Below are positions 10,586 through 63,765 of a stretch of DNA of 64,000 nt, piece by piece. The notes under the pieces were generated by a model. It saw only the letters and a program-made list of their open reading frames with translations, made no database searches and was not told the DNA's origin. The stretch lies in the NCBI RefSeq assembly GCF_051903065.1, contig NZ_CP178438.1. One strand, 5' to 3'. The DNA is from Escherichia coli. GTDB taxonomy: Bacteria; Pseudomonadota; Gammaproteobacteria; Enterobacterales; Enterobacteriaceae. Position 1 is the stretch's first letter. Every line of letters starts with the position of its first letter. Position numbers and translations under genes: made by a program.

Positions 10586-11880
10586 AGACCAAAATATAAT
10601 TTGACCTGTGAAACGACTACAGGCATTTAAATTCCAGTTAAGACCCGGTGGTCAACAGGAGCGTGAAATGAGGCGCTTCGCAGGCGCATGTCGTTTCGTT
10701 TTCAATCGTGCTCTGGCACGTCAGAATGAGAATCATGAGGCCGGTAATAAATACATCCCTTACGGGAAAATGGCTTCCTGGCTGGTTGAGTGGAAAAATG
10801 CCACTGAAACGCAATGGCTTAAAGATGCCCCGTCACAGCCATTGCAACAGTCACTGAAAGACCTTGAGTGGGCTTACAAAAACTTCTTCCAGAAGCGGGC
10901 TGCTTTTCCCCGATTCAAAAAGCGGGGACAGAATGATGCATTCCGCTACCCGCAGGGCGTTAAGCTCGATCAGGAAAACAGCCGTATTTTTCTGCCGAAA
11001 CTGGGCTGGATGCGCTACCGGAATAGCCGTCAGGTCACGGGTGTTGTGAAAAATGTCACGGTCAGCCAGTCCTGCGGTAAGTGGCACATCAGTATTCAGA
11101 CAGAAAGTGAAGTATCAACTCCGGTTCACCCTTCAGCATCAATGATCGGGCTGGATGCTGGCGTGGCTAAACTCGCCACGCTGTCAGATGGCACAGTCTT
11201 TGACCCTGTAAACAGTTTTCAGAAAAACCAGAAGAAGCTGGCGAGACTTCAGCGACAGTTCAGCCGCAAGGTCAAATTCAGCAACAACTGGCAGAAGCAG
11301 AAACGCAAAATACAGCGACTGCATTCCCGTATCGCAAATATCCGCAGGGACTACCTTCACAAAGTCACAACGACCGTCAGCAAAAACCACGCAATGATAG
11401 TCATTGAGGATTTGAAGGTCAGCAACATGTCAAAGTCAGCAGCGGGTACGGTCAGCCAGCCGGGGCGCAATGTCCGGGCAAAATCAGGTTTAAACCGTTC
11501 GATACTGGATCAGGGCTGGTATGAAATGCGTCGCCAGCTTGAGTACAAGCAGCTCTGGTGTGGCGGTCAGGTGCTTGCTGTTCCGCCAGCGTACACAAGC
11601 CAGCGTTGCGCGTGCTGTGGTCATACAGCGAAAGAAAATCGCGTGTCACAAAGTAAATTCAGATGCCAGGTATGTGGATATACAGCGAACGCCGATGTAA
11701 ACGGCGCTCGTAACATTTTAGCGGCGGGGCACGCCGTTCTTGCCTGTGGAGGGATGGTGCAGTCAGGCCGCCCGTTGAAGCAGGAACCCACCGAAATGAT
11801 TCAGGCGACAGCCTGAACGTAGCAGGATCCTCGTCATTCAGGGCGTGGAGGATGTCAACAGTTTTATCTACAATTGGGGT
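10101..11880. mobile_element. IS200/IS605-family insertion element (divergent tnpA and tnpB); boundaries approximate
   Basis: Y1/HuH TnpA and TnpB ORFs back to back; a similar 17-mer CGTCnTTCAGGGCGnGG occurs in direct orientation at 10131-10147 and 11832-11848, which I interpret as subterminal end structures. Confidence 0.7.
10608..11816 (+). CDS. tnpB: TnpB (IS605 OrfB family, RuvC-like RNA-guided nuclease)
   Basis: 402-aa ORF with RuvC-like motifs ([26 protein letters not shown]) and a CxxC...CxxC zinc finger near the C-terminus; no internal stops. Confidence 0.85.
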
Positions 11881-15464: not shown

Positions 15465-16883
15465 TCAGACAACTTCCTCACCGTAACGCATAGTGCTGGT
15501 ACGGTTGCGCCCATCTTTCTTCGAGCGATACAGACACGTATCGGCTTCGACCATCAATTTATTAAAGTCATCGGTCAGCGTTCGGTACGATGCGCGACCA
15601 CTACCGACGCCAATACTTACCGTGAGATAAAGCGTTTTTTGTTGCCAGGTGAATGGTTGCAGTTCAACGCCTTTACGGATTTTTTCCGCCATTAGCAGAC
15701 CATCGACAGGATTCACCGACGGCACTGCAACAGCAAATTCTTCGCCGCCCATGCGCGCCACCAGCCCCTTATCACCGACAATCTTCTGAATATGCCGGGC
15801 AAACACGCTTAACACTTTATCGCCACATTCATGTCCATAGTTATCGTTAATACTTTTGAAATAGTCGATATCAAGCAGCATGACAGTCAGATGTTGTGTC
15901 TGTTTCAGCGATGGACTTTTCAGCGCCTCATAAAGACCGGACCGTGAGTAAACCTGAGTCAGAAAATCAAAGTCGGCTCGCAGCGCAACTTGCTTCATTA
16001 GCGAATTGATCGCTGCCACGCTAAAAGAAACCATAATTGGGCATATCGCCATCGTGGCAATACCGAGACGTGCGGAGAACATTTCCGGAATGGAGAACGG
16101 CGAACCGACCGAGATATCAATCACCGAATTAGCCACCAGTACGATTTCCACCGCACCGGTGACAAAGGTCAACAGACATGTTACCTGCGGCGTATAGCGC
16201 ACTGCACACCAGATTAATGCAGGCAGCGGGAACGCCAGACTCCCCGCTCCGCCAATGACTACCGAGGCAATAACCGACACAATAAGCGCGATGGCGGGCA
16301 TCATCTGTTCTGCTTTAAAGCGCGGCAGCACTCCAGGAATAGCCAACGTCAGCATACAAGGCACGATCAACACGCCCGTTGAGAATTGCTCACTGAACCA
16401 GTCCGCAAGCAAAGGCCAGAAATCCAGACTATCAATACTGACCGAACCAATCGCCCCGACAATAGCGCATAATAATGCGGCAATCAGACAGTAATTAAAT
16501 AGCCGTAAGGCACTTACTGGCTCATACTTATTTTTCCCCAGACGCTTATCCCGCACGACCAGTAAGGCGACGGTAACAATAAACATCATATTGGAGAAAT
16601 TGATAGCCAGTGAAACCAGTCCCCATTCGGTGGTTATGACATCATAAACCAGCATCGCCACATAACTGATCGCATAGTAATGCAGTCGATTAAGCCAGAC
16701 ATAGCGGGCAAACACCCCCGCCATTACGCCATTCAGCGGCCAGAAAAGAGAAAGTTCGTGAACCAGCCGTAACTCTGCACCAATAAAATAGAACAGCGTG
16801 GTTAGCGCAAAAATAGCGATGCTATTACGTAGCAGATGACCTTCCTGGAACAAACGGAAAGTTGAAATGGGGTGTACATGCAT
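15465..16883 (-). CDS. dgcF: Membrane-anchored diguanylate cyclase (GGDEF)
   Basis: 472-aa ORF: N-terminal multi-TM region plus C-terminal GGDEF domain (RMGGEEF motif). Reference annotations may use a shorter start. Confidence 0.8.
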   Translation of the reverse strand: MHVHPISTFRLFQEGHLLRNSIAIFALTTLFYFIGAELRLVHELSLFWPLNGVMAGVFARYVWLNRLHYYAISYVAMLVYDVITTEWGLVSLAINFSNMMFIVTVALLVVRDKRLGKNKYEPVSALRLFNYCLIAALLCAIVGAIGSVSIDSLDFWPLLADWFSEQFSTGVLIVPCMLTLAIPGVLPRFKAEQMMPAIALIVSVIASVVIGGAGSLAFPLPALIWCAVRYTPQVTCLLTFVTGAVEIVLVANSVIDISVGSPFSIPEMFSARLGIATMAICPIMVSFSVAAINSLMKQVALRADFDFLTQVYSRSGLYEALKSPSLKQTQHLTVMLLDIDYFKSINDNYGHECGDKVLSVFARHIQKIVGDKGLVARMGGEEFAVAVPSVNPVDGLLMAEKIRKGVELQPFTWQQKTLYLTVSIGVGSGRASYRTLTDDFNKLMVEADTCLYRSKKDGRNRTSTMRYGEEVV

Positions 16884-17021
16884 TAATTATCTGTCCATAC
16901 AATTGCGGGTGGCAATTATCTCAACGTAATAAGTAAATTCTCATAAAGGATAGCATGTTCGCTGACAGCGGCGGCAAATAAAGGTACCCTGGGAATGCTA
17001 TTTTATCGTTTTCCGCAATTC

Positions 17022-27702: not shown

Positions 27703-27798
27703 ATGCTGGGTAATATGAATGTTTTTATGGCAGTACTGGGAATAATTTTATTTTCTGGTTTTCTGGCAGCGTATTTCAGCCACAAATGGGATGACTAA
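27703..27798 (+). CDS. mgtS: Small membrane protein MgtS (31 aa)
   Basis: ATG...TAA encodes MLGNMNVFMAVLGIILFSGFLAAYFSHKWDD with an upstream GGAGG RBS; below the ORF-track size cutoff, read directly from the DNA. Confidence 0.85.
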   Translation: MLGNMNVFMAVLGIILFSGFLAAYFSHKWDD

Positions 27799-27825
27799 TG
27801 AACGGAGATAATCCCTCACCTAACC

Positions 27826-27864
27826 GGCCCCTTGTTACAGTTGTGTACAAGGGGCCTGATTTTT
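27826..27864 (+). terminator. Rho-independent terminator of mgtS
   Basis: GGCCCCTTGT...ACAAGGGGCC stem followed by a T-run. Confidence 0.65.
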
Positions 27865-27869
27865 ATGAC

Positions 27870-27968
27870 GGCGAAAAAAAACCGCCAGTAAACCGGCGGT
27901 GAATGCTTGCATGGATAGATTTGTGTTTTGCTTTTACGCTAACAGGCATTTTCCTGCACTGATAACGG
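27870..27968 (-). ncRNA. mgrR: PhoP-activated small RNA MgrR (ends approximate)
   Basis: Minus-strand terminator (stem CCGCCGGTTTACTGGCGG plus U-run) about 100 nt downstream of a PhoP-box-like promoter; lies between mgtS and dgcZ as in K-12. Confidence 0.6.
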
Positions 27969-28005
27969 ATCGTTGACACAGTAGCATCAGTTTTCTCAAT
28001 GAATG

Positions 28006-39367: not shown

Positions 39368-39943
39368 CTACGGCAGTGCTGGCCATTCAATATCCTGTGC
39401 AGTTGACGTATCAACACGGTTCAGCAATACCCGATACTTTTTCCATGCTTCCAGCAACGAGATTTCTTCCTCCGTTGCAATTTCCAGATCTGCAGCATCC
39501 TGAAGCGGCGCAATATGCTCACTGGCTACCTGCATCAGGTTGTTTTTTGTTTCTTCCGCCTCCCGGATCCGGAACAGTTTTTCTGCTTCCGTATCCTTCA
39601 CCCAGGCTGTGCCGTTCCACTTCTGAAACTCCCCTTCCGGCGATAACCAGGTAACATTTTCCGGTAACGGACCGAGTTCAGAAATAAATAACGCGTCGCC
39701 GGAAGCCACGTCATAGACGGTTTTTCCCCGATGATCTTCAACGAGATGCCACGATGCCTCATCACTGTTGAAAACAGCCACGAAGCCTGCCGGAATATCT
39801 GGCGGTGCAATATCGGTACTGTTTGCTGGCAGACCTGTATGAGGCGGAATATATGCGTCACCTTCACCAATAAATTCATTAGTTCCGGCCAGCAGATTAT
39901 AAATTTTTATGGTCTGTGGTTGTTCACTCATTCTGAATGCCAT
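39368..39943 (-). CDS. tfaQ: Tail fibre assembly protein
   Basis: 191-aa ORF of the lambda Tfa family, immediately downstream of stf. Confidence 0.85.
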
Positions 39944-41159
39944 TATGCAAGCCTCACAATATAGTTAAATGCGATGTTTTTGACGGTGTTTTCCGCGTTA
40001 CCAGCAGCGTTAACGGTGATGGTGTGTCCATGTGAACCAATCGCAACGGAGTGCGTATGAGCACCAATACCGACAGTATGTGCATGTGCGCCTGCGCTTG
40101 CAGCAGTGCCGGACAGCGAGTGGGTATGAGCACCATCTGATGATGTCTTCCCTGCATTACGAGTCTGGCCACTACCGCTTGTTGTGCTCATAATCCCCGC
40201 GCTTAGATTTGAAATCGCGGTATAACCATTAGGGAAAATGCTCGTGTTCGTGCCACCAAATGCACCGGAACTCTTGTGTTGGTGCGCACCGGCACTATTT
40301 GCAGTCCCGCTAATACTATGGGTATGCGCCCCGGTGTTATTCGTGGATTTGGTTCCGTAATCAAACGACGATGTGTTTTTCGTCCCCAAATCCGTACTGG
40401 ATGCGCTGGCGCTGTGGGTGTGCGATTTAATGCCGTCCTGTTCCTGAGACAATACGGCACGACCACTGGCGGGTTTGCCCTTAATCGTCCAGCCACGCAT
40501 ATCAGGGATCACGGCTGACGGATAAGCGGCTGCAAGTTTCGGGTATGCAGATTTGTCAAAAGTCTGCCCCTGCATCAGGGCATAGCCAGACGGAACGGTA
40601 TCTGATGGCCACGGGATTGGTGCGCCAGGCGGATAAAACTGCTCTGATGGCGTATAGAGTGAATAAACTGTACCGTCCGTTAACCCTTCCGGCTTATTAG
40701 CAGAATATGCTGGTGACGTATGAATCGTCACGCTGGCATTACTGGTATAATCCCATTGAATATTTACACCAGTCGCATAATTTCCGATTGCAACGTAAAT
40801 ATCGTAAGTATCACCAGATGTATTGACCCAGGCAAAATTTGTAAACCCTGTCGATGTGCGCTGCCATAAAGCACCAGTAATCCCCTTCGGATTACCATTA
40901 CCTGCACGCAAAACAAGTTCAGATATACCTGCCTGTTGAGGTGACCCCACGTTAAATCCCGCGCCACCAATCAACGTAATTGAAACAACAGAACTCGCCT
41001 GTGGCATGGTTACCGTTGCTAATTTGAACCAACCAGCACCACCGCTGAATGACATTGTTGTTGAGTTAAGCGTACCAATATCTTTCGGCGTCAGTGTTAT
41101 ATCCGCTGAAAGCGCCTTACCATTCACCTTACGGGCAGAAGGTACCCGACCATTCGCAT
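39943..41159 (-). pseudogene. stfQ: Side tail fibre protein, C-terminal portion only (5' end cut by the IS903-like element)
   Basis: Open frame runs without a stop from the IS boundary at 41159; Gly/Ser/Thr/His-rich repeats typical of Stf; nearest start (GTG) at 41127. Confidence 0.8.
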
Positions 41160-42216
41160 GGCTTTGTTGAATAAATCGAACTTTTGCTGAGTTGAAGGAT
41201 CAGATCACGTATCTTCCCGACAACGCAGACCGTTCCGTGGCAAAGCAAAAGTTCAAAATCACCAACTGGCCCACCTACAATAAAGCCCTCATCAACCGTG
41301 GCTCCATAACTTTCTGGCTGGATGATGAAGCTATTCAGGCCTGGTATGAGTCAGCAACACCTTCTTCACGAGGCAGACCTCAGCGCTATTCTGACCTTGC
41401 CATCACGACTGTGCTGGTCATTAAACGCGTATTCAGGCTGACCCTGCGCGCTGCGCAGGGCTTTATTGATTCCATTTTTTCTCTGATGAACGTTCCGCTA
41501 CGCTGCCCGGATTACAGCTGTGTCAGCAGGCGGGCAAAGTCGGTTAATGTCAGTTTCAAAACGCCCACCCGGGGTGAAATCGCACACCTGGTAATTGATT
41601 CCACCGGGCTGAAGGTCTTCGGTGAAGGCGAGTGGAAAGTCAAAAAGCATGGCCAGGAACGCCGCCGTATCTGGCGTAAGCTGCATCTCGCCGTTGACAG
41701 TAAAACACATGAAATCATCTGCGCTGACCTGTCGCTGAACAACGTTACGGACTCAGAGGCCTTCCCCGGGTTAATCCGGCAAACCCACCGGAAAATCAGG
41801 TCAGCCGCCGCCGATGGCGCTTACGATACCCGGCTATGTCACGATGAACTGCGGCGTAAGAAAATCAGCGCGCTTATCCCTCCCCGAAAAGGTGCGGGTT
41901 ACTGGCCCGGTGAATATGCAGACCGTAACCGTGCAGTGGCTAATCAGCGAATGACCGGGAGTAATGCGCGGTGGAAATGGACAACAGATTACAACCGTCG
42001 CTCGATAGCGGAAACGGCGATGTACCGGGTAAAACAGCTGTTCGGGGGTTCACTGACACTGCGTGACTACGATGGTCAGGTTGCAGAGGCTATGGCCCTG
42101 GTACGAGCGCTGAACAAAATGACGAAAGCAGGTATGCCTGAAAGCGTGCGTATTGCCTGAAAACACAACCCGCTACGGGGGAGACTTACCCGAAATCTGA
42201 TTTATTCAACAAAGCC
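41160..42216 (+). mobile_element. IS903-like element (IS5 family, IS903 group), 1057 bp
   Basis: Terminal inverted repeats GGCTTTGTTGAATAAATC at 41160-41177 and its reverse complement at 42199-42216; flanking 9-mers differ (CATTCGCAT versus TTTATGACC), so no target-site duplication. Confidence 0.85.
41192..42160 (+). CDS. IS903-group DDE transposase
   Basis: 322-aa ORF recognised as IS903/IS102-like transposase (…[42 protein letters not shown]…). Confidence 0.85.
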
Positions 42217-43317
42217 TTTATGACCTAAAAGAAGTTCGACAATATAAGGATCCGCCCCCATATCATTAAGCGTAGTGGAAAATGTGCGCCTGAAATCATG
42301 TATGCACCACAAGCCATTAGTATCATGACCAAGACACCTGCATATTCTGTTTGCAGCCCCTGTTATTGTCGCCCTTTGCAAAGCACAACCGACAACATAA
42401 CCGCGATTTTTTGTTTCTGCGTAAAGATTAACGATCCATTGTTTTATTCCGTCAGGAACAGGCCTTACTATAGCCTCCTTGTTTTTGCTGTGCTCTTTTG
42501 GGACTGTCCATACCCAGTTTTTTAAATCCCATTCGTCCCAGGTGGATAGCCTCGCCTCCTGCTGTCGGCAACCAAACACCAGGCAGATAACCATTATTCT
42601 TCGGTTATATATTGATGACAGAGTTAGCAAATTATTACCGTAAGCATAAGACCATACATCAGCGGTTTCATTGATATTAAGAACGCGATCCCTTATACCG
42701 GATGAGCGCCCGACATAACTTACGTTAATATCTCCAAAGGGATCGCACGCGATGTATTGCCTGACGCGACAAAAACGCAACGCCTGTTTGATATCAAGAA
42801 AAATTGCACCAGACATAACAGGCGCATTTTTTTTGATCCTGTCAAAGACGGTAAGCCATGTGTGTAATTTGCACTGTTCTATAGCCATATCACCGATATA
42901 GGGGAAGATATGCTTTTCAAATCGTTTTATTAAATATTCATGCTCTTTTCTGGCTGTTGTGGCGTGATTGTCGTACCAGTAAAACAGCGCATCCCTTACG
43001 GTCACTGGTTGCATAGTTTTTTCGGCAGCAAGTTTTATTTGCCTGCGGGGGTCCAGATTTTCAGCCAGCCATTCACGGCACTGATCACGCATGCGCCTGG
43101 CCGTTGCAAGAGACATGTCAGGATAGCGACCAAGTGTAAGCCATACCGGAGGGGATTCCCTGCCACCAAGACGATAGTAAAAAACAAAGCTGATCCCCCC
43201 AACCATGCTTACACGCACAGACAACCCGCGCCCATCCGCTATTGTTTTTTGTTTGTCCTGCCGTTTTCCGACAAGACTCTTTAACAGTTTGTCACTGAGT
43301 TTGTTTTCAATAGCCAT
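42217..43317 (-). pseudogene. P4-like tyrosine integrase, 3'-truncated by the IS903-like element
   Basis: P4-type N-terminus and HDFRRTF...LLGH box, but the frame runs into the IS terminal repeat before the catalytic tyrosine would be encoded. Confidence 0.8.
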
Positions 43318-43335
43318 TAAAAGCCCTCAAGAGAT

Positions 43336-43389
43336 TTGCAATACACACCCATCCCGATCGCCAATTTGCAATACACATTGCAATACACA
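43336..43389. repeat. Three direct copies of TTGCAATACACA immediately upstream of the integrase start
   Basis: Copies at 43336-43347, 43366-43377 and 43378-43389 (last two in tandem); candidate arm-type recombinase or regulator binding sites. Confidence 0.6.
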
Positions 43390-43465
43390 AAACCGCGAAA
43401 AACTGGAAGGGTGATGAACGGTCATCAAAAGCATGGAAAACGACATTCCAGACGCAGCAAGGGTT

Positions 43466-46446
<2,981 letters not shown>

Positions 46447-46472
<26 letters not shown>

Positions 46473-48734: not shown

Positions 48735-49080
48735 GATGGTGTTAACTCCAGTCATCGCTGGCACTACCACTGCTGGTTCAGAGTTAAAAAAAACTATGAT
48801 TTTTTTCATGATGTTACCGTAGTATGTGAGTATCCATCGAATAGACACCAAGCAAAAAAGCTCCCGAAGGAGCCTTCATTTTCACTTTTTTAAATCCAAC
48901 GACAGACGGCTGGCATTTAAGTATTGTGAAATATTATCAAATGTAATCATCATTGATTTACAAAAGATACATTTTGCCCCGAAAGGATTCATGTCAGAAA
49001 CATCAAAAGATGATGTTCTATACTGGGAACCATGACAACACGGGCATCTAAAGTGAATATGGTTTGTAATATTGTCTACC

Positions 49081-49293
49081 TCAAAGCGCCACTACATGAA
49101 CAGCGGCAGGACCTTTAGGTCCGTTCTCAATACCAAATTCAACTTCCTGATTCTCAGTTAATGTTTTGAAATCGTTGCTCTGAATTGCTGAGAAATGGAC
49201 AAACACATCTTTGCTGCCATCTTTCGGCGTGATGAAACCAAAACCTTTTTCAGGGTTAAACCATTTCACTAAACCAGTCATTTTGTTAGACAT
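49081..49293 (-). CDS. cspI: Cold shock protein CspI
   Basis: 70-aa [44 protein letters not shown]... Confidence 0.9.
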
Positions 49294-49655
49294 AATTATT
49301 ACCTTTTGAAGAAATTAGCCCTTGGGCAGAATGGTCCGAAAAAAAATATCAGAGAGAAAAACCAACAAGGAAATCTCAAGAGGTACAAATAATAAAATTA
49401 TAACAATGACTGCTTCAGATAAATTTGTAACAAACCAGAACACCATTAACGCATGATTAACCACCCATAGCAAGGATTACTTTTGTAAAGAAAAACACAG
49501 CAATGAAAGAATAGCTTTATTTATTAATAAAACGTGTCATTCTGATTAAGACCTTTTATCTTACCCTTAAGATTTCAGGAATTTTGGCTCATGGAAGAGT
49601 CCTTTTTATTTAAATTTTACATTCCGCGATGTAAATGTTCCGATTTAATATTACC

Positions 49656-51600: not shown

Positions 51601-51963
51601 TTGATTTTATTAGTAACAAGTATTTTTTATATTTTAATAATATATTTAAAGCAGATAATAAAAAACCCGCCTGAGCGGGTTTGAGATTGTGGTGCTTTTT
51701 GTGGGAGTCATCCACTTACGCACTTTGTTTTGCGATGCCAGCAGTTAGCTTCTGCTGTGAAACTATTCATGCAGCAAACCTGCACTTCACCACAATGGTT
51801 AGCATACTTTTCCTGATTAAGATTTTGCCAAATATGCTGGCCATTGTTTCATGTATTGGACCTCCTTACTTTTTATTAAAGAGATCCAATATTCACTACT
51901 CTGTCCGTATCTCTACTCAGGCATCAGCCTTCTTCGTTATCGTATACAGACGAGCGATGAATT

Positions 51964-52179
51964 TTAATCAGTAATGATGACATTTACTGCTGCAGGACCT
52001 TTAGCACCACTCTCTATAGAGAAGGTAACCTTTTGACCTTCAAATAAGGTTCGATAATTATCATTCTGAATCGCAGAAAAATGCACAAACACATCTTTAC
52101 TACCATCAACAGGAGAAATAAAGCCGAAACCTTTATCAGCGTTAAACCATTTTACTAAACCAGTCATTTTATTTGACAT
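51964..52179 (-). CDS. cspB: Cold shock protein CspB
   Basis: 71-aa [44 protein letters not shown]... Confidence 0.9.
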
Positions 52180-52489
52180 TCTACATTCCTTAACTTGAGC
52201 CTTTCGGCATAAATGGTTTGCATAACAGAAACGACTTCGTACTTAATTGGAGAGACTCAAAGAAGGAATAAGTGAATAACACCTGAAATGAGAACTGCTT
52301 TAGTAAACTACTTCGTATATCGTCTGTTCTTCAAACCGACGCAGTCATTAACTCATAGTTGAACATATGAAGCAATGTTTATTTTAGACATCCAGCCACC
52401 TTCAATCCTATCAAAAAAGTAGTTTTCTCCAGGAACGTGTGTATGGTGCACCAGGTTATCAGTATTAAGGAGTTTTTCTGTCCCCTAAA

Positions 52490-55741: not shown

Positions 55742-55897
55742 TTACTCCTCAGGTTCGTAAGCTGTGAAGACAGCGACCTCCGTCTGGCCGGTTCGGATTC
55801 GTACCTCGCAGAGGTCTTTCCTCGTTACCAGTGCCGTCACTATGACGGTTAAACAGATGACGATCAGGGCGATTAACATCGCCTTTTGCTGCTTCAT
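55742..55897 (-). CDS. hokD: Hok-family type I toxin (51 aa)
   Basis: Read from DNA: MKQQKAMLIALIVICLTVIVTALVTRKDLCEVRIRTGQTEVAVFTAYEPEE. Confidence 0.85.
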   Translation of the reverse strand: MKQQKAMLIALIVICLTVIVTALVTRKDLCEVRIRTGQTEVAVFTAYEPEE

Positions 55898-55968
55898 AGC
55901 CTGCTTCTCCTGTCAACGCAAAGCAGAAGTGTCACCTTCGGTGCGAAACAGAGATGTCATGCTTTGGT

Positions 55969-56256
55969 TCAGAGAATGCGTTTGACCGCCTCGCTATATA
56001 CTTCCGAGCGTTCTCTTTTCCCAACAGAAATCACGAAAACGACAACTTTCTCGTCTATAACCTGGTATACAAGGCGATAGCCTGAAGACCGGAGCTTAAT
56101 CTTGTAACAATCAGGCATACCACGGAGCTTGTTTGCTTCAATCCGGGGTGACTCAAGTACTTCAACCAGCTTCTTTTTCAACTGTTCACGTACCGTCGAG
56201 CCCAGCTTTCGCCATTCCTTTAGTGCCCGCTCGTCAAAATCCAGAAAATACGCCAT
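55969..56256 (-). CDS. relE: Type II toxin RelE (ribosome-dependent mRNA interferase)
   Basis: 95-aa ORF MAYFLDFDERALKEWRKLGSTVREQLKKKLVEVLESPRIE... Confidence 0.9.
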   Translation of the reverse strand: MAYFLDFDERALKEWRKLGSTVREQLKKKLVEVLESPRIEANKLRGMPDCYKIKLRSSGYRLVYQVIDEKVVVFVISVGKRERSEVYSEAVKRIL

Positions 56257-56495
56257 CAGAGTTCATCCAGCGTCACACGTACTGGCTTAGGATTACGAAG
56301 CCGTTCTTTCACTATCTCCACAAGTTCAGCATCTTCATCACTCAGGAGTGTCTGTTTGAACGGCAAGCGTTCATTGTCAGCGATATACTCGAGCATGAGA
56401 CGAAGCGCTTCAGAAGGAGTTACACCCATTTTTTCAAGCGCGGCGTAAGAACGCGCTTTAAGTTCATCGTCAATACGCAGGTTAATGCTACCCAT
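56256..56495 (-). CDS. relB: Type II antitoxin RelB
   Basis: 79-aa ORF MGSINLRIDDELKARSYAALEKMGVTPSEALRLM..., start overlapping the relE region as in relBE. Confidence 0.9.
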   Translation of the reverse strand: MGSINLRIDDELKARSYAALEKMGVTPSEALRLMLEYIADNERLPFKQTLLSDEDAELVEIVKERLRNPKPVRVTLDEL

Positions 56496-56499
56496 GTCT

Positions 56500-56535
56500 T
56501 ACACCTCTTGTAATTACAAATGTCATTACAAGTAT
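56500..56535 (-). promoter_or_regulatory. relBE promoter/operator (relO) inverted hexad repeats
   Basis: CTTGTAATTACAAATGTCATTACAAG contains palindromic TTGTAAT/ATTACAA elements immediately upstream of relB. Confidence 0.6.
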
Positions 56536-56825
56536 CGCACTACAACATGCTTAGGGCAAGTCACGAAGGAAGTCAGAAAGTAGTCGTAAGAACGGTGATC
56601 ACTGTCCGCTTTGTGCCAGGAGCAGCCATTGCTAAGTCCATCCTGTATTGTGCAGGTCAGCTCGTTTTTAAAGAGTCCGGCCATCATCTTACTGGTACAG
56701 ACACCATATACTTTGTGACGGTCAGGCTACATATGCACAACTCAACTTATTCATCTATTTTTTGCTTTAGCATGTCAGTGTTGCTTTCTCGTCGGCGGGT
56801 GAGCGGTGACCTGACCTGTCGATAA
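56520..56825 (+). CDS. ydfV: Prophage protein YdfV
   Basis: 101-aa ORF divergent from relB; K-12 gene order. Confidence 0.65.
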   Translation: MSLQVSHYNMLRASHEGSQKVVVRTVITVRFVPGAAIAKSILYCAGQLVFKESGHHLTGTDTIYFVTVRLHMHNSTYSSIFCFSMSVLLSRRRVSGDLTCR

Positions 56826-57027
56826 AGGAACGTAACACGTTTTATGCAACACCCGCATGCGGCAGAAAATTATTGCCGAACGTTTACCCCTGTCAACAAG
56901 CTTTACTTTCTGAGGCGCGCCAGCCCGCGAGGAAAACAATCTGAACATCAAACAATTAATGACACAAGAAATACGATTAAAGATTTTTTTGTACATGCCG
57001 ATAGTGCTTTTTTAAAAGGAGAAATCT

Positions 57028-57360
57028 ATGTCTGTCACAATTCAGGGAAATACCTCAACCGTTATTTCAAACAACTCCGCCCCGGAAGGAACATCAGAAA
57101 TAGCCAAAATCACAAGACAAATTCAGGTGCTGACTGAAAAGCTTGGGAAAATCTCATCGGAAGAGGGGATGACGACACAGCAGAAAAAAGAAATGGCTGC
57201 ATTGGTACAGAAGCAAATTGAAAGCCTCTGGGCTCAACTGGAGCAGTTGTTAAGGCAGCAGGCAGAGAAAAAGAATGAAGACGCGACAGTTCAGCCTGAT
57301 AAAAAAGAAGAGAAAAAAGACGATACAAATACCGCTGGCACCATTGATATTTACGTCTAA
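57028..57360 (+). CDS. flxA: FlxA (FliA-regulated protein)
   Basis: 110-aa ORF MSVTIQGNTSTVISNNSAPEGTSEIAKITRQIQVLTEKLGK... Confidence 0.85.
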   Translation: MSVTIQGNTSTVISNNSAPEGTSEIAKITRQIQVLTEKLGKISSEEGMTTQQKKEMAALVQKQIESLWAQLEQLLRQQAEKKNEDATVQPDKKEEKKDDTNTAGTIDIYV

Positions 57361-57373
57361 GTGACAGCCGTAT

Positions 57374-57402
57374 TGTGGCCCTCATCGGGCCACTTTTCGC
57401 CA
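57374..57402 (+). terminator. Candidate terminator after flxA
   Basis: TGGCCCTCATCGGGCCA stem followed by CTTTTCG. Confidence 0.45.
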
Positions 57403-57796
57403 TCAGCCTTTTCTTTAAAGACATATTATCTTTGTATCATTTCTGATAGTTAACATTACAAGATATAAGTAATGGACGCACTCCCAATTAGTCTATTTAA
57501 ATCGCCACGAGTTTAACTGACAACCCATGATCAATTATGAATTGCAACTATTTCTGTAGTCACTTTTGTGGGGACAGTCCACAAAACTGCCAACTTCCGC
57601 TTCTTGCTCTTAGCGGACATTAGCATAGGCTATTTACCATAACGCCTCATTACGCACACCGCCCAGACTGACTCAGCGCGTTTCTGGCATATCCCCGGTA
57701 AAACAAGTAACAAACCACCCGAAAATGAACACCAGAAACGCGACTTAAGAATCTACCCTATGAATGGATATGCACTCAACCGAATCGATCTTGGTT

Positions 57797-59110
57797 TCAA
57801 TCTTTTTTATCGGGATCAGGCTTCTTTTTAGGTAACTTCGGGGGCTTAACTTGCTGATGACTTTGCGTTCGGCGCGTAAGCCAGGGATGGTCAGCTTTAG
57901 GTTTAACATAGTATTTTGAGCGTAAATCAATACGGGCATTATCCACTCGTTCATGGACACTCTTTTCATCATCCGGTGGTATAGGCTCCGGGCCATCAAC
58001 ATACTTTTCCCAGCCCAGCGCTTTCCCGTCATACAGAACGTTAATTTCACCGTCAAAGTTCTCGCATACAGTAACAACCGAATGCCTAAGTCGATATCCC
58101 CGGCCCTCACTGCGTACCTGAAACGCACTGCTTTTGTACTGGAAAGTGAGATTTTTAGACAGAACGCGCTTCGCCTGTAGGCTGAAGATATAACCCAGTT
58201 CCTCTTCAGAATGGTGCACATCAAGATGAGCATTATCAGTAGTACGAGGCGACGTAGCGAACCGGTTGTTATAGGCTTCAATAAAGGTCGGCAACCATGC
58301 ATTTGCTGTTTCAATATCACTGATATTCTGAAGCCGCATTTCTTTGACCAGCCTGTCCTGTAGTGTCTGATTGGCGCGCTCTACCCGCCCTTTTGCCTGC
58401 GGGCTGTTGGCATGGATTGGCTCGATGCCCAGTGTCTTTATCGCACGAGTGAACTGGGTCAGCTCACCTTCCCGCTCTGGGTTATTTACCCTGAATATAC
58501 TGTGTCTATCAGAGTAGAGAGCGAGCGGTACGCCATGATCATTAAGGTAACCCCGGAGGGTTTCCATGTAAGCCCGGGTTGTTTCAGCAGGCACAAAACG
58601 CAACGCCATCAACGCACTGGTGGCATCATCAATGAAAACGATCAGTGTACATCTGGGGCCTCGATTTTCAAACCAGTCATGAGATGAGCCATCAATCTGG
58701 ATCAGTTCACCGTAAGATGGTCGTCGCATGCGGCGTTGATATATACGGGCAATTTTACGACGGCGTTCACGCCATAACCCCTCTTCTATCATCCACTTTC
58801 TGAGAGTTTCAACGGATAAAGATAAACCGTGTATCTCGCGCAATTTTTCGCACGCAAACGTAGGTCCAAAATCAGCGTAACGGCCTTTGAGGAGTGAAAT
58901 TACTGTTGCTCTGAATTCAGTAGAAAAGGAATTATTAGGACGCTTTCCACGTCGGTGGGAAACCAGACCAGAAGGCCCTTCATTTCTATACCGTTGCACC
59001 AGACGTTTAACCTGCCGAATAGAAATGCCAATGCGTGCCGCAGCTTGTTCCTGAATAATCTGAAGTCGGTGGAGTTCCTTATGACTCATCGTAACAGTCT
59101 CTTTGATCAT
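57797..59110 (-). CDS. Single-ORF DDE transposase with N-terminal HTH and rve integrase core (IS481-like; family uncertain)
   Basis: 437-aa ORF; candidate DDE residues in ...IQIDGSSHDW..., ...LYSDRHS..., ...KGRVERANQT...; Lys/Pro-rich C-terminal tail; no companion helper ORF. Confidence 0.7.
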   Translation of the reverse strand: MIKETVTMSHKELHRLQIIQEQAAARIGISIRQVKRLVQRYRNEGPSGLVSHRRGKRPNNSFSTEFRATVISLLKGRYADFGPTFACEKLREIHGLSLSVETLRKWMIEEGLWRERRRKIARIYQRRMRRPSYGELIQIDGSSHDWFENRGPRCTLIVFIDDATSALMALRFVPAETTRAYMETLRGYLNDHGVPLALYSDRHSIFRVNNPEREGELTQFTRAIKTLGIEPIHANSPQAKGRVERANQTLQDRLVKEMRLQNISDIETANAWLPTFIEAYNNRFATSPRTTDNAHLDVHHSEEELGYIFSLQAKRVLSKNLTFQYKSSAFQVRSEGRGYRLRHSVVTVCENFDGEINVLYDGKALGWEKYVDGPEPIPPDDEKSVHERVDNARIDLRSKYYVKPKADHPWLTRRTQSHQQVKPPKLPKKKPDPDKKD

Positions 59111-59444
59111 GAAAAATCCCCCAGAGAATTGTCTGGGGACATTTTAGAATGGTTCAAAGGGGACATTACAGCTTGGTGTTAACAATAGCCTGCTTCTCCG
59201 TGCCTTTCGGCACGTAAGAGGCTAACCTACATGTGTCTAGCATGAAATTGGCCTCAGATTAATGTTAAGCGTCTTGCAGGACGCGTAATGTTAACTGGGG
59301 CTTTTCTCTATCTGCCGTTGGTGTCCATGCCCGAGGCAGATAGCCTCAAGCACCCGCAGTCATTCTACTTAACTAAGATTTCCCCGCAAACCGTTTTTGT
59401 CCAGCACAGTAAATATCCAACTAAACCAATGGAGTTCGCTGTAT

Positions 59445-59663
59445 TTACCGCCAGTATTCAATGCACATGACCGCCATGAACACCCCTAAAAAAAGGGCAT
59501 TTATATATCCAAATATTAATATCAAAACATCAACTTTTTCCATATACCTTGCTGTGAAGATGATGGGCATACATGATGCGAACAACCAGAACGCAACAAA
59601 CAAAAACTGCAATGCGTTTTTCATTATTCCTCCTACAATCAATGTGCAATTACATTTAAACAC
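59445..59663 (-). CDS. Candidate small membrane protein (two predicted TM segments)
   Basis: ORF ...MKNALQFLFVAFWLFASCMPIIFTARYMEKVDVLILIFGYINALFLGVFMAVMCIEYWR; hydrophobic profile only, no homology assessed. Confidence 0.3.
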   Translation of the reverse strand: MFKCNCTLIVGGIMKNALQFLFVAFWLFASCMPIIFTARYMEKVDVLILIFGYINALFLGVFMAVMCIEYWR

Positions 59664-60776
59664 ACCTCAATTTGGCCGGACATATAAATATCTAAACCAG
59701 AAAAAATCACTTACATAGCGTTACAAACTCTTTAGTCTAAAGGTTCATCGTAAAACATTCCCCATACTTATCAGTCCGTTCCGCGCCAGGTAGCTCATTG
59801 CCTTATCTGGCAACCTGTAATCAGGTTTCCGCTTTTTCAGTTGGCTGGTCGTTTAACCGACATAGTTAATCCATTAATCTAGTTGCCGGATGTTGGTGGA
59901 TTTTCGCGTTTTAGTTGTTCATAAAAGTGCACAGCTTTAACCAGTTCTTCTGATGTAACTGGGACTGGTGAGGCAGTGAATAAGGCCTGAATTTGATAGT
60001 TCGGCCTGTCGTTACAATCCTCTTTTTTCGGTACATATTTCCAGTCACCAGACCACTACTTCCCCTGAAAGTCCGTAACGCCTTTTTTCACGTAGCGATA
60101 TCGCCATGCCACTGGTTTTGCTTGCCCCGCCGTTTCATGCCCTTCCTGATAATTAATCTCGCTCATTCATCGCCCCACTCATCACAATATGCTTCGACCG
60201 GAGTTTTTCCCGCTTCATAGTCATCACGCTAGGATTCGACATCAGCAGCACTTCCACCGCGTAACTCACCATAGTCCATTAATAGTTCATCCCGCTCTTC
60301 AAAACTGATGTTATATTTAGCTGAACAAAAATCAGCCACTTTGTTCTTCCTCATCGTCTTTTATTTCGTGGTATGAGTAATTGCAGTAGTTAAAGAAAAT
60401 TTCTTATGCTCCGTCATGAATTTCCTCAGGTGTTGCGTCATCGTCCACTTCGAATACATCCTCAAAATCTCCACCAGCTATTCCCGTTTCAATAATAATT
60501 TTGAACTTTCGCATTTCACTACCGCCCTTTCGGGCGGCCTCCTGATGTTCTGAGGGTGCAGAAATCCATCCGGTTAAGGATTAAATTTTATTTACAGAAC
60601 TGAATTTAATTATTCAGATATACGTATCTGTAGCCTTACGAATCTACTCACTGGATGCCTCTTTCATAAAAATAATCCAGTGGGTTTTATCGTTTTTTCC
60701 CTGTTCGTTGACAGATAACAGGTTTTCTGTCTGTCAGTGCCAGAATCTGGCTTACCGGTATTTGCGTTTCATTCCA

Positions 60777-61133
60777 TTAAAAAATCAGAACGCCGTGCGG
60801 CCTCAACACCCGAAAGGCTTCTTTAAATCTCTGTCGCGAATCATCACGCCAGGCATCTTTATTCAGCCGTCCATATTTCTTTCCCATCCAGGCGTTATCA
60901 CCAACACTCTCAAGATGCGGAGGGTCTAATACAACCATCGAAAAAGATGCGTCTGCAAATGATAATGCACGAAAATCTGCGATAATGTCAGGGCTGATAA
61001 TCAAGCGTCTCCCATTGCGTAATGTGTATCCTTCTTTTCTGATATCGCTGAATATCGCCCGTTCGTCAGACTTATCGAACCAGAACATGCGGCTGCCACA
61101 GCACATATCAAGAATGGTTGCCGGTGCACTCAC
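60777..61133 (-). pseudogene. SAM-dependent methyltransferase-like protein, probably truncated
   Basis: 118-aa ORF with SAM-binding-like ILDMCCGS and a DPPH motif (compare DPPY/DPPW of N6/N4 DNA methyltransferases); too short for a complete enzyme and followed by degraded coding sequence. Confidence 0.5.
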
Positions 61134-61552
61134 TGCGCCACGTCCTGAAAATTACCCTGATAGAAAGCCAGTATGCGCTGCATAACTTCGCTCTTCCGGC
61201 ACTCGCGACAGATTATGTTTAGGCGACTGTCGTAGCGACGTATTTCTCCGTCAGGTGATGACCAGATAAGGTCCGGATCAACCACAGCAGGTTTCTTCAC
61301 CTTTGCCCTCGAGAGTTTTTTGCGGGCGTTTTGCCAGTCCTTACGCGCCTGTTCAGAGGGGAATAACCCGTAGCCGGAGTTGTATACATCGCCACTGGCT
61401 ACCAGCTCTCTGGCAAGAACGCTCATCAGATATCTAGTCGCACCTGTTTTAGCTTCCAGTTGCCGTAACGTCTCACGGCCGCTCTGGCGCACGAGTTCCA
61501 CCACCTGCCATTTAATTTTTTCCCGCTCTTCTTGTGTAAAAACTTTTGCCAC
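61130..61552 (-). CDS. Hypothetical prophage early protein (140 aa)
   Basis: Uninterrupted ORF within the early-right operon; Lys/Arg-rich middle and CxxC near the C-terminus; function unknown. Confidence 0.5.
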   Translation of the reverse strand: MAKVFTQEEREKIKWQVVELVRQSGRETLRQLEAKTGATRYLMSVLARELVASGDVYNSGYGLFPSEQARKDWQNARKKLSRAKVKKPAVVDPDLIWSSPDGEIRRYDSRLNIICRECRKSEVMQRILAFYQGNFQDVAQ

Positions 61553-61592
61553 AAGTCCCCCTTAAAATTACCTCATGACCTGAAATCAACAC

Positions 61593-62612
61593 TTATCCTC
61601 TGAAACCAGGCGGAATTTCTGTATCCGGTTCAGAAATATGATTAACACAACGCTGTACAGGTGAACGTCCCAGGCGGATGACCAGTTCGTCCCATTTTTC
61701 GAGGAGCTTTGACGGGCTCATGATGTTTTTTACCCAGAATGGATCTCGCTGAACCCGACCAAACATTTCGCAAATTTGTCTGTGGCTTCTGCCATCCAGC
61801 ATCCGCATTGTGCGCACGTCATTGGCCCAGGCAGTCCAGTTAGGCTCTTTTGGTCGCATGATCTCGCCATCATCACTGGCTGCCTGTTCGTAGAGACCCA
61901 CGATCCGCCCCCAGATCCACTGCGCACACGCCAAATCCTCCCTGCTACCCCACTGGCGTTTTTTCGCACTAAACACAACCGCGTCGGAGTTCCGGGTTAA
62001 AAAATCCTGTTCAGTCGTCTGCGGGTCCGGTTGCGAAGCTTCCGGACGAAAAGTGTTTTTATTCTCTGTAGTAATCTCTGTTGTATTCTCTGTAAGATCA
62101 TCAGGCCATTTTGACCCGATGACATTGGGTCGTTTTGAACCAATGGAGCGTTTCATTTTGACCTCTTCCATCGTGTCATTTTGACCTGATGGAGCGGCGC
62201 ATTTTGAACCGATGGATTCGCTCAATTTGCCACCATCTAAAAGCTCGCTCCCATAGTTGATCGTGTAGAAATTGGTCATATCGCGCTTTGATTTATTGAG
62301 CTTTTCACAACGCAAAAGCCCCAGCGTTTTCAGACTTGCAAACGCGCGCTTTAACGTTGACTCTGACCAGAATGGGAACTGTTCCAGCCATTGTTCCGTT
62401 GTGTTATAAATCCAGCGAACACCATCACATTCCATGCCGGAGTTGGTATCTCTCAACCAGTAGTGCAGTTGTTGCAAAACAATGGCTTCGTTTAAGCCAA
62501 TTTTCATTGCCAGCTGCGTGTTTATAACCAGTGGGCGTTCAGCAAAAAGAAGGCTCATAATTCCATCCAGCTTTTTGTTGGTATTGCTGTCGATACGCAA
62601 GTTTGAAAGCAA
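61593..62612 (-). CDS. Putative phage replication initiation / replisome organiser protein (O-like position)
   Basis: 339-aa ORF in the position of lambda O; N-terminal region looks like a winged-helix phage replication organiser domain. Assignment by position and general resemblance only. Confidence 0.5.
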   Translation of the reverse strand: MLSNLRIDSNTNKKLDGIMSLLFAERPLVINTQLAMKIGLNEAIVLQQLHYWLRDTNSGMECDGVRWIYNTTEQWLEQFPFWSESTLKRAFASLKTLGLLRCEKLNKSKRDMTNFYTINYGSELLDGGKLSESIGSKCAAPSGQNDTMEEVKMKRSIGSKRPNVIGSKWPDDLTENTTEITTENKNTFRPEASQPDPQTTEQDFLTRNSDAVVFSAKKRQWGSREDLACAQWIWGRIVGLYEQAASDDGEIMRPKEPNWTAWANDVRTMRMLDGRSHRQICEMFGRVQRDPFWVKNIMSPSKLLEKWDELVIRLGRSPVQRCVNHISEPDTEIPPGFRG

Positions 62613-63060
62613 TTGCTTTTTCTATAAGTTCGTCAGTTTCACGATCCACTACGGCAGGATCAGCAAAAAGCAGTCCGGACTCCACCACATCGCCATATTC
62701 TTTGTTTAACCCGGCGATCATGCACGTGATGCTTTTTCCGTCAGTAATTTCACGATACAACCTGAAATCATTAATCCGGATAGCCTCCATAATTGCAGGC
62801 ACTAGCGCCGTGAACTTTTCACGCTTATCCCTGGTGTCGATAGCCTTCCAGCGTTCAAATATCTTCACTCGATTAACGCCAAGCGCTCGCTGATCAATCG
62901 CGCCACCTTCATATGTGACACGCTGAACATCGATGTTCGGGCGCTCTTTCAAAGCCCAGAATGCTTCAGTGATTAATATCGTCGCCTGCTCCTGTGTCAT
63001 TCCTGGTCGACATATCCAGGCATCCAGAGCCTCACGAGCCTGTTCAGGAGTGATTTTCAT
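62539..63060 (-). CDS. Phage early protein at the cII position (possibly YdaT-like)
   Basis: 173-aa ORF directly downstream of dicC on the minus strand; functional assignment tentative. Confidence 0.45.
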   Translation of the reverse strand: MKITPEQAREALDAWICRPGMTQEQATILITEAFWALKERPNIDVQRVTYEGGAIDQRALGVNRVKIFERWKAIDTRDKREKFTALVPAIMEAIRINDFRLYREITDGKSITCMIAGLNKEYGDVVESGLLFADPAVVDRETDELIEKAIAFKLAYRQQYQQKAGWNYEPSFC

Positions 63061-63274
63061 TGTTCAACCGCCCCGCCCGCTTCGTCTTACGATATTCATC
63101 ATAAACTTTGGGATCATACTGAAGCTCCCCGCCAGATGCCTCCTGTAGACGCATCGCGCGACCTTCGGGAACTAAATCCCCTTTCCAGCTATAAAGCGAA
63201 GCCAAACGAATACCTGCTGCTTGTGCAAGTTTTGTTTTTGAACCGAAATACAAAAGAGCGTCAGTTTTAAGCAT
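63044..63274 (-). CDS. dicC: Cro-like repressor DicC
   Basis: 76-aa ORF MLKTDALLYFGSKTKLAQAAGIRLASLYSWKGD... divergent from dicA. Confidence 0.9.
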   Translation of the reverse strand: MLKTDALLYFGSKTKLAQAAGIRLASLYSWKGDLVPEGRAMRLQEASGGELQYDPKVYDEYRKTKRAGRLNNENHS

Positions 63275-63357
63275 TTAAAACACCTTTATTGTTAGCCATA
63301 ACTAACAAGATAGATGTTAACAAAAACATAGTCAATACGATTTAGCATTAGCTAACT

Positions 63358-63765
63358 ATGGAAACAAAAAATTTAACTATCGGCGAACGCATCAGGTATC
63401 GTCGGAAAAACCTCAAACACACCCAAAGGTCTCTTGCTAAAGCCCTGAAAATCTCCCATGTGTCTGTATCACAATGGGAACGGGGTGATAGTGAACCTAC
63501 AGGGAAGAACCTTTTTGCCCTCAGCAAAGTATTGCAATGCTCACCAACATGGATTCTATTTGGCGATGAAGACAAGCAACCAACACCACCTGTTGAGAAG
63601 CCAGTTGCCTTATCCCCCAAAGAACTAGAGCTCCTTGAGCTGTTTAATGCACTGCCAGAATCAGAACAGGATACCCAGCTCGCCGAAATGCGAGCTCGAG
63701 TAAAAAACTTCAATAAACTCTTTGAAGAATTACTAAAAGCCCGTCAGCGGACAAATAAAAGATAA
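63358..63765 (+). CDS. dicA: Repressor DicA (HTH, controls dicB)
   Basis: 135-aa ORF METKNLTIGERIRYRRKNLKHTQRSLAKALKISHVSVSQWERGD... with Xre-type HTH. Confidence 0.9.
   Translation: METKNLTIGERIRYRRKNLKHTQRSLAKALKISHVSVSQWERGDSEPTGKNLFALSKVLQCSPTWILFGDEDKQPTPPVEKPVALSPKELELLELFNALPESEQDTQLAEMRARVKNFNKLFEELLKARQRTNKR

Follow-up and report, generated by a model that had tools for sequence, protein, structure and literature searches.

We conclude with high confidence that the DNA downstream of dicC in the 64-kb window (the whole stretch analysed, 64,000 nucleotides) belongs to a lambdoid cryptic prophage of the Qin family and forms its early-right (PR-type) operon, in a version less decayed than that of K-12. 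The module is ordinary and already known: it occurs in deposited phage genomes and is annotated in RefSeq, and several hundred E. coli other than K-12 have the Qin operon in this form.

Four ORFs of 173, 339, 140 and 118 aa, all on the minus strand, stand directly downstream of dicC (62539-63060, 61593-62612, 61130-61552 and 60777-61133, respectively), as an earlier note on this DNA had reported. Below, the first is assigned to the YdaT family of regulators (cII position), the second to a replication initiator, the third to a DUF977 (LygF) protein at the ren position and the fourth to a methyltransferase fragment. All four have phage homologues, with PHROG E values of 5.5e-40, 8.3e-91, 1.6e-47 and 6.7e-58 in the same order, and are therefore not chance ORFs. 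Because dicC overlaps the 173-aa ORF by 17 nt, this ORF overlaps the initiator ATG by 20 nt, and the 140- and 118-aa ORFs overlap by 4 nt, we consider them packed as a single operon. At its head stand two divergent repressor genes, one of CI type and one of Cro type, as in a lambdoid PR operon: dicA (63358..63765, plus strand; Pfam HTH_3, 1.3e-16, and Phage_CI_repr, 7.5e-6), annotated under this name in E. coli W, and the Cro analogue dicC (63044..63274, minus strand; 76 aa; Pfam P22_Cro, 1.7e-11), identical to K-12 dicC nucleotide for nucleotide. Upstream of dicC, a consensus scan points to a candidate PR-like sigma-70 promoter, TTGACT-17-TATCTT (63307..63335, minus strand; 9/12 positions), in a region where such a scan finds fewer promoter-like sites than in shuffled sequence; its position agrees with the divergent dicA/dicC promoter and switch described previously (bioRxiv 10.1101/2024.09.21.614188). 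No tRNA genes were found in the window.

The last gene of the operon is, judged by homology, an inactivated small phage DNA methyltransferase, the DNA substrate being an annotation-level label. The 118-aa ORF matches PHROG 954 and carries both motifs that had been pointed out in it, LDMCCGS at residues 8-14 (motif I, SAM binding) and DPPH at residues 70-73 (motif IV). Translation and DNA alignment with intact alleles extend the whole gene body of this orphan pseudogene to 60644..61133 (minus strand), with two lesions: a TAA at 60777-60779, codon 119, which is AAA in intact alleles, and a +1 frameshift due to an extra G (CCC on the plus strand, 60699-60701). PGAP flags the same two lesions in strain MS15047, and the region of this gene is found in 905 E. 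coli genomes. Intact alleles measure 157-175 aa, the 157-aa one being from another E. coli strain, 2014C-4423, and an intact allele matches PADLOC MTase_II (1.5e-71), while a PDB sequence search with the intact protein returned no solved relative, noise apart; the window copy does not form a complete ORF of about 157-175 aa. Thus, the proposal of a truncated methyltransferase stands as to the inactivated phage enzyme and falls as to truncation: shortening by deletion is ruled out, since the full gene body is present with its nonsense codon and frameshift. Where RefSeq records list the 118-aa fragment as an intact protein, the pseudogene call corrects them.

Beyond this pseudogene lies a decayed nin-type region of small ORFs (59356..60643, minus strand), for which PGAP annotates a DUF7167 gene with an internal stop and a frameshifted hypothetical gene in E. 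coli W, whose sequence is 99.9% identical to the window there; small genes homologous to this region adjoin hok in other lambdoid phages. The prophage is defective overall, with fragmentary late genes, most of them missing, and with an IS and a second integrase gene among them, so that the module may never fire. Taken together with an IS903B found within the initiator gene in some strains, the dead methyltransferase, the stops and frameshifts in the downstream small genes and the loss of most late genes could suggest that the four ORFs are themselves decayed, non-functional remnants whose frames happen to have stayed open in a dead prophage. Comparison with phages makes this improbable. Escherichia phages mEp460_ev081 (LR597641) and HannyBb (PP925841) have the same order of cro-like, YdaT-like, initiator and DUF977 genes, all in intact frames, at a DNA identity of 96-97%; at the protein level, identity to the window is 98-99% for the YdaT-like protein and the initiator and about 93% for the DUF977 protein. 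Protein lengths are equal (173/173 and 321/321 aa), save for the DUF977 call in mEp460_ev081, which is shorter (133 aa). Synonymous change is in excess in the initiator, with 15 synonymous to 3 nonsynonymous differences in one of the two comparisons and 23 to 7 in the other. The immunity genes do differ, DicC being only about 70% identical, and mEp460_ev081 has no methyltransferase, HannyBb only a 68-aa fragment.

The homology evidence supports the reading of the 173-aa ORF, at the cII position, as a YdaT-family regulator and functional equivalent of CII. It matches PHROG 163, labelled ‘CII-like’, and Pfam PF06254 over residues 59-131 (E 4.5e-5), the latter with 24.2 bits against a cut-off of 21, a small margin that makes the YdaT assignment marginal to the extent that it leans on this score. 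A 29-aa stretch matches the helix-turn-helix region of Rac YdaT, and in this pairwise sequence alignment, IFERW falls opposite the IYHRW of Rac YdaT. Such a placement would be compatible with the conserved recognition-helix arginine of YdaT (Phe59-Arg60 in CP-933P YdaT), for which a variant with a one-residue insertion is described (PMC9986795). A PDB sequence search with the YdaT-like protein gave no match to the solved YdaT structures, noise apart, and neither NCBIfam nor PADLOC matched the YdaT-like, initiator or DUF977 proteins. The Pfam family names (YdaT_toxin, YdaS_toxin) and the PGAP/RefSeq product name ‘toxin YdaT family protein’ would instead make dicC and the 173-aa gene a YdaS/YdaT-type toxin–antitoxin pair, which we regard as very unlikely. 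According to the literature, genetic context and structure make YdaS and YdaT equivalents of Cro and CII, and the toxin hypothesis is not upheld by experiment (PMC9986795; see also PMC5917428, PMC8630535). Moreover, the pair is immediately flanked by a CI-type repressor on one side and a replication initiator on the other. The racR-ydaS-ydaT-ydaU-ydaV-ydaW genes of Rac follow the same logic of repressor, Cro analogue, YdaT-family regulator and then initiator; Rac differs in its DnaC-like YdaV, in a YdaT that shares only the 29-aa stretch, and in YdaW, which in K-12 is not similar to the DUF977 protein.

The 339-aa ORF is the mechanical maximal ORF, read from a TTG. All homologues begin with MSLLF, and the real start is thus probably the ATG at 62558, giving an initiator of 321 aa (61593..62558, minus strand; PHROG 391). 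A first AlphaFold2 run with 13 close homologues reached a pLDDT of 55, with all Foldseek matches at E > 0.04; when rerun with a 35-sequence alignment, the model comprised two folded domains, a disordered linker and a disordered tail. The protein may accordingly be divided into a winged-helix N-terminal domain, the linker, a helical C-terminal domain and a DnaT-like tail. Structurally, it comes closest to replication initiators and primosome proteins, and the N-terminal domain is, in the predicted structure, a winged helix of DnaD/RepA_N type. Pfam searched at E up to 10 returned only noise, and the lambda O family model (Phage_rep_O) was not matched; as far as homology tells, the initiator works like O, yet it falls outside the Pfam family of lambda O.

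By its sequence, the part of the initiator gene that codes for the disordered linker holds an origin of its own, made up of iterons and an AT-rich repeat. A repeat search revealed 5-6 copies of a 23-bp repeat (62099..62230; families D1/D2, spacing 23-24 bp), which encode SIGSK repeats; all five matches to the core CRTTTTGAMC in the 64-kb window lie within 62107-62209. Beside them is an AT-rich tandem repeat of 3 × 12 bp (62060..62095, family D3), a candidate unwinding element by analogy with the lambda ori. In lambda, iterons inside the initiator gene, in its linker-coding part, are followed by an AT-rich stretch, and the layout in the window is the same, as befits a lambdoid PR operon. The positional logic of lambda cro-cII-O-P-ren is shared as well; unlike lambda, the operon has no sequence member of the CII, O or P families and no P gene.

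The mapping of the four ORFs onto the cII/O/P/nin positions, proposed in the earlier note, therefore needs revision in one place: the cII position (PF06254, PHROG 163) and the O-like gene (PHROG 391, iterons) hold, and P does not, the 140-aa ORF being a DUF977 gene. Its product matches PF06163 (5.1e-29) and PHROG 142, labelled ‘Ren-like’; apart from noise, PDB, NCBIfam and PADLOC gave no match, and a literature search for DUF977 returned nothing related. That it is nonetheless the analogue of P, the helicase loader, is suggested by its place immediately after the initiator and is hardly to be expected, as the DUF977 protein has no AAA+ or lambda-P similarity, and a Rac-like prophage of 2014C-4423 and a Klebsiella phage each have a distinct DnaC-like loader gene upstream of their DUF977 gene. 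No helicase loader, P or DnaC-like, follows the initiator, without any AAA+ or P match in 59200-63060, and neither mEp460_ev081 nor HannyBb has a loader gene; the module is thus devoid of a P/DnaC-type loader gene here and in related phages, which again argues against the 140-aa ORF as an analogue of P.

We propose that transcription would start from the DicA-repressed dicC promoter and proceed through dicC and the YdaT-like, initiator and DUF977 genes into the dead methyltransferase. Derepression would let the winged-helix domain of the initiator bind the iterons, with opening of the AT-rich repeats next to them. With no loader gene of its own, the phage module would draw on host DnaB-DnaC directly, perhaps by way of the DnaT-like tail of the initiator. 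This tail (...VNHISEPDTEIPPGFRG-COOH) aligns with that of E. coli DnaT (...VNTVSEPDSQIPPGFRG-COOH) with an hhalign E value of 4.4e-6, both at the protein end. The flexible 20-residue C-terminal tail of DnaT is what it has in common with the initiator; the DnaT domains do not align with it. Homology of the whole initiator C-terminal domain to that of DnaT was considered and rejected, hhalign aligning the last 21 residues only. Many homologues have a DnaT-like tail, and the linker before it varies in length. The last 19 residues of Rac YdaU, a DUF1376 protein otherwise unrelated, match the initiator at 13/19 positions; YdaU has this tail despite its DnaC-like neighbour, which counts against the role proposed for it. 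Searching the literature for DnaT together with the GFRG motif of the tail gave nothing relevant. A tentative and rather doubtful reading is that the tail may be a portable docking peptide, joining phage origins to the host factor bound by the DnaT tail.

MG1655 has only the short ydfW (49 aa) and ydfX (96 aa) between flxA and dicC, in agreement with the earlier note. Comparing the window with NC_000913.3 by blastn gave two colinear segments abutting at window 57981/62781, so that 57982..62780 (4799 bp) is missing from K-12 and the ORFs are not present intact there. These data support the loss of most of the operon from K-12 by one clean 4.8-kb deletion running from the interior of a transposase gene to that of the YdaT-like gene. 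K-12 Qin is the same prophage with the same flanks, and dicC, relBE, hokD, flxA and ydfW are nucleotide-identical to the window; gone from it are the initiator with its origin, the DUF977 gene, the methyltransferase pseudogene and the larger part of the YdaT-like gene. The transposase gene has also lost three quarters of its length, and the hokD locus its sok half. YdfX consists of the first 93 residues of the 173-aa protein and 3 junk codons, and ydfW corresponds to the last 49 codons of the IS1202-family transposase. That K-12 is instead ancestral and the window gained 4.8 kb by insertion has nothing in its favour beyond the difference itself and is scarcely credible, given that truncated halves of two genes (YdfX, YdfW) are kept at the K-12 junction, that this junction falls at a 9-bp imperfect microhomology (ATAGGCTCC/ATAGCCTCC), and that the contiguous K-12 junction occurs in 360/5426 genomes, the five sampled by name being K-12 or laboratory derivatives.

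A separate observation concerns relBE, ydfV and flxA, which ride on a 3.3-kb transposon of the IS1202 family (window 55911-59184) whose insertion sites are hok ribosome-binding sites. Its transposase matches NCBIfam ISNCY_2 (1.7e-136; 455 bits against a cut-off of 250), the element ends in TGT/ACA with 22/30 matching inverted-repeat positions, and target-site duplications of 15-16 bp have four different sequences at four sites. On a plasmid, the element has a length of 3301 bp. It thus displays the traits of the family, namely the transposase, 5′-TGT...ACA-3′ ends, imperfect terminal inverted repeats and a target-site duplication (PMC10132070). A search inside the 3.3-kb element for a left inverted repeat that could delimit a separate 1.6-kb IS found none.

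The significance of the operon itself is small, being the correct reading of an annotated prophage operon, and the side observations could matter more. If true, the docking-peptide reading would account for a module that functions with no P-type loader, and would suggest a partner of the DnaT tail, for which we found no defined role in the literature examined. For the annotation of K-12, ydfX, to which a 2024 preprint still assigns no function, is what remains of the 5′ part of a gene for a CII-equivalent regulator; ydfW/intK is the remaining 3′ end of a transposase gene, and K-12 Qin is without origin and initiator. Finally, the model toxin–antitoxin pair relBE travels on a transposon whose targets are hok genes.

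Four ORFs follow dicC on the minus strand of Qin, the lambdoid cryptic prophage that also holds dicA, at the coordinates and with the lengths of an earlier note, whose interpretation as an early-right operon is essentially right. dicC (63044-63274, minus), which lies upstream of the four ORFs and matches Pfam P22_Cro, is identical in nucleotide sequence to its counterpart in K-12 (MG1655), and dicA (63358-63765) is divergent from them. The claimed phage early-region homology was borne out by a PHROG search, which gave a strong family match for each: PHROG 163 'CII-like' (5.5e-40) for the 173-aa YdaT-like ORF (62539-63060), PHROG 391 'replication initiation O-like' (8.3e-91) for the claimed O-like gene (61593-62612, up to 339 aa), PHROG 142 (1.6e-47) as well as Pfam DUF977 (5.1e-29) for the 140-aa ORF (61130-61552), and PHROG 954 'DNA methyltransferase' (6.7e-58) for the 118-aa ORF (60777-61133), all on the minus strand. 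Overlaps of 17 nt (dicC and the 173-aa ORF), 20 nt (the 173-aa ORF and the initiator) and 4 nt (the 140-aa and 118-aa ORFs) give the genes a translationally coupled operon layout. The initiator probably starts at the ATG at 62558, the start shared by every homologue and every annotation, and is then 321 aa long, 339 aa being just the longest possible ORF. The finding of an early-right operon is ordinary, and the annotation is already present in RefSeq and in phage records. Judged by its sequence, the window copy of the module looks intact and may be expressed.

YdaT proteins, formerly named toxins, are now regarded as functional CII equivalents (PMC9986795). The 173-aa protein clears the Pfam YdaT_toxin threshold narrowly (24.2 bits versus a cut-off of 21) and has a 29-aa stretch in common with YdaT of the Rac prophage, in which a candidate FxR/YxR recognition-helix motif falls; a PDB search returned no sequence match between it and the solved YdaT structures. 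The reading of the 140-aa ORF as occupying the P position was not upheld: it encodes a DUF977 protein ('LygF' in phage records) for which no P or DnaC similarity was found, and 'Ren-like' is only a PHROG annotation label. In other prophages, a distinct DnaC-like gene stands upstream of DUF977.

Direct repeats of 23 bp, five to six in number, occupy 62099-62230 within the initiator gene, and three 12-bp AT-rich repeats come after them at 62060-62095. The iteron core CRTTTTGAMC has five matches in the whole 64-kb window, all within 62107-62209 and spaced by 23-24 bp. AlphaFold2, run with a 35-sequence alignment, predicts two domains, one N-terminal and confident (residues 11-105), the other C-terminal and helical (181-298), which are separated by a disordered stretch (110-179) and followed by a disordered tail; the disordered stretch is the part encoded by the iterons and AT-rich repeats. 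The lambda origin lies within the O linker, a placement that resembles that of the repeats in the disordered stretch here. In some initiator homologues (290 aa), 31 residues of the SIGSK repeats encoded at 62099-62230 are missing as a block, and iteron number thus differs between copies.

The last 20 residues of the initiator, VNHISEPDTEIPPGFRG (codons in 61593-61655, minus), resemble the C-terminal end of DnaT from E. coli, VNTVSEPDSQIPPGFRG (phmmer on PDB with a 55-aa query, E 7e-4 to 2e-3; hhalign E 4.4e-6), and hhalign found no alignment between the two proteins outside this tail. The IPxGFRG motif is fixed at the C terminus of homologues, diverged ones included, after a linker of variable length. 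The Rac initiator YdaU, which is unrelated elsewhere, terminates in VNTVSLPDSAIPPGFRG, so that both ends are near copies of the DnaT tail (...SEPDxxIPPGFRG-COOH). The C-terminal part of DnaT is described as a highly flexible 20-residue tail (review, PMC5778457), and a preprimosome structure paper (2026) gives it no partner. We infer that the tail may serve as a docking peptide, a lead worth separate follow-up; a role as a simple loader substitute was rejected because Rac carries both the tail and the DnaC-like YdaV.

The 118-aa ORF, presented earlier as a truncated phage DNA methyltransferase, does belong to a methyltransferase family, and its end is a TAA at codon 119 beyond which the gene body continues. 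Translation past this stop (60777-60779) stays in frame (WNETQIPVSQILALTDRKPVI, as in full-length relatives), and alignment with intact alleles reveals that an A-to-T change turned codon 119 from AAA into TAA and that a G has been added 78 nt beyond it; the gene body thus starts at 61133 and extends to 60644-60646, where the ancestral stop lies. Both lesions recur in a 98.7%-identical Qin variant, flagged 'frameshifted; internal stop' by PGAP, which indicates that inactivation is old in this lineage. The 118-aa product listed as an intact protein in RefSeq is an artefact. Strain 2014C-4423 has an intact 157-aa allele, located after a DUF977 gene in a Rac-like prophage, and this allele matches PADLOC 'MTase_II' over its whole length (1.5e-71); from annotation, DNA is the putative substrate.

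With coverage of at least 80% of 60500-63400 as the criterion, 280 genomes have the full region, E. coli W and ATCC 8739 among them; there PGAP labels the genes 'toxin YdaT family protein', hypothetical protein (the initiator), 'DUF977 family protein' and 'class I SAM-dependent methyltransferase'. The cro-like/YdaT-like/initiator/DUF977 block also occurs in the deposited Escherichia phage genomes mEp460_ev081 and HannyBb at 96-97% DNA identity, with 169/173 identical residues in the YdaT-like proteins and 314-318 of 321 in the initiators, whose differences are mostly synonymous (15 against 3 nonsynonymous, and 23 against 7). The immunity genes of these phages differ from those of the window, DicC being only ~70% identical, which places a mosaic boundary inside dicC. 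No P or DnaC-type gene follows the initiator in either phage. In two clinical strains otherwise 100% identical to the window (NZ_AP045789.1 and NZ_AP045800.1), IS903B interrupts the initiator. On 56 contigs, 448-aa proteins combine the YdaT Pfam domain with 99% of the initiator at ~100% identity; they resemble a fusion of the overlapping pair of genes, perhaps through a frameshift variant or an artefact of gene calling.

As the earlier note had stated, K-12 keeps only short fragments between flxA and dicC. Colinearity between the window and MG1655 ends at 57981 and resumes at 62781; in K-12, which thus lacks 4799 bp (57982-62780), the two segments are directly joined. The junction is an imperfect 9-bp microhomology, ATAGGCTCC/ATAGCCTCC. 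On one side, YdfX consists of residues 1-93 of the 173-aa protein plus three foreign codons; on the other, YdfW (IntK) corresponds to the final 49 codons of an ISNCY/IS1202-family transposase gene that encodes 437 aa. These truncated gene halves rule out an insertion into the window with K-12 ancestral, and establish a deletion in K-12. Of 5426 complete E. coli genomes, 360 have the contiguous K-12 junction, and all five named examples are K-12 or laboratory derivatives.

Other differences from K-12 were observed. A 1.75-kb IS200/IS605-type element between lsrG and tam (10113-11858; Y1 transposase of 188 aa, TnpB/Cas12f-like protein of 402 aa) is absent from K-12. The GGDEF gene matching dgcF (15465-16883, minus) encodes 472 aa versus 315 annotated in K-12, where 498 bp on its 5' side (16451-16948) are missing. 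The stfQ-nohA interval of Qin (40641-46463) spans 5.8 kb versus 257 bp, with genes for an IS5-family transposase, an integrase (371 aa), part of a lambda-type portal (293 aa) and a large terminase (641 aa). Apart from the comparison with K-12, Rfam gave gathering-level matches in the window to STnc560, IS009 and two cspA-type thermoregulator leaders (27792-28005, 39402-39600, 49054-49439, 51917-52340), the last two within the Qin cold-shock gene region.

Relative to mEp460_ev081 and HannyBb, 55911-59184 is a single insertion carrying relE, relB, ydfV, flxA and the IS1202-family transposase. It is one 3.3-kb transposon-like unit, with 5'-TGT...ACA-3' ends, terminal inverted repeats matching at 22/30 positions and an exact flanking 15-bp duplication, ATAGCCTGCTTCTCC. 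Copies of 3301 bp with a 446-aa transposase, 99.2-99.7% identical, reside on IncI, IncF and IncK plasmids of Salmonella, Enterobacter and E. coli, and the 15-16-bp duplication differs from one copy to the next; the Qin transposase has a 27-bp in-frame deletion, and the unit is present in 1303 of the 5426 E. coli genomes. A plasmid-derived relBE integrated at hokD has been described (PMC6379469), and ISfinder lists ISEsa1 as 1609 bp with no duplication (PMC10132070); we found no mention of a transposase with relBE at hokD in the accessible literature, and this transposon is also a lead worth separate follow-up. In all cases the insertion site is the stretch from the Shine-Dalgarno sequence to the ATG in a hok gene. 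In the window, the hokD coding sequence (55742-55897, minus) adjoins the left end of the unit and a full-length Rfam sok match (59184-59355, minus; 104 bits) lies directly at its right end, so that the hokD locus is split in two. Insertion at hok explains the relB-relE-hokD arrangement of K-12, whose hokD lacks sok because the 4.8-kb deletion then removed the sok half.
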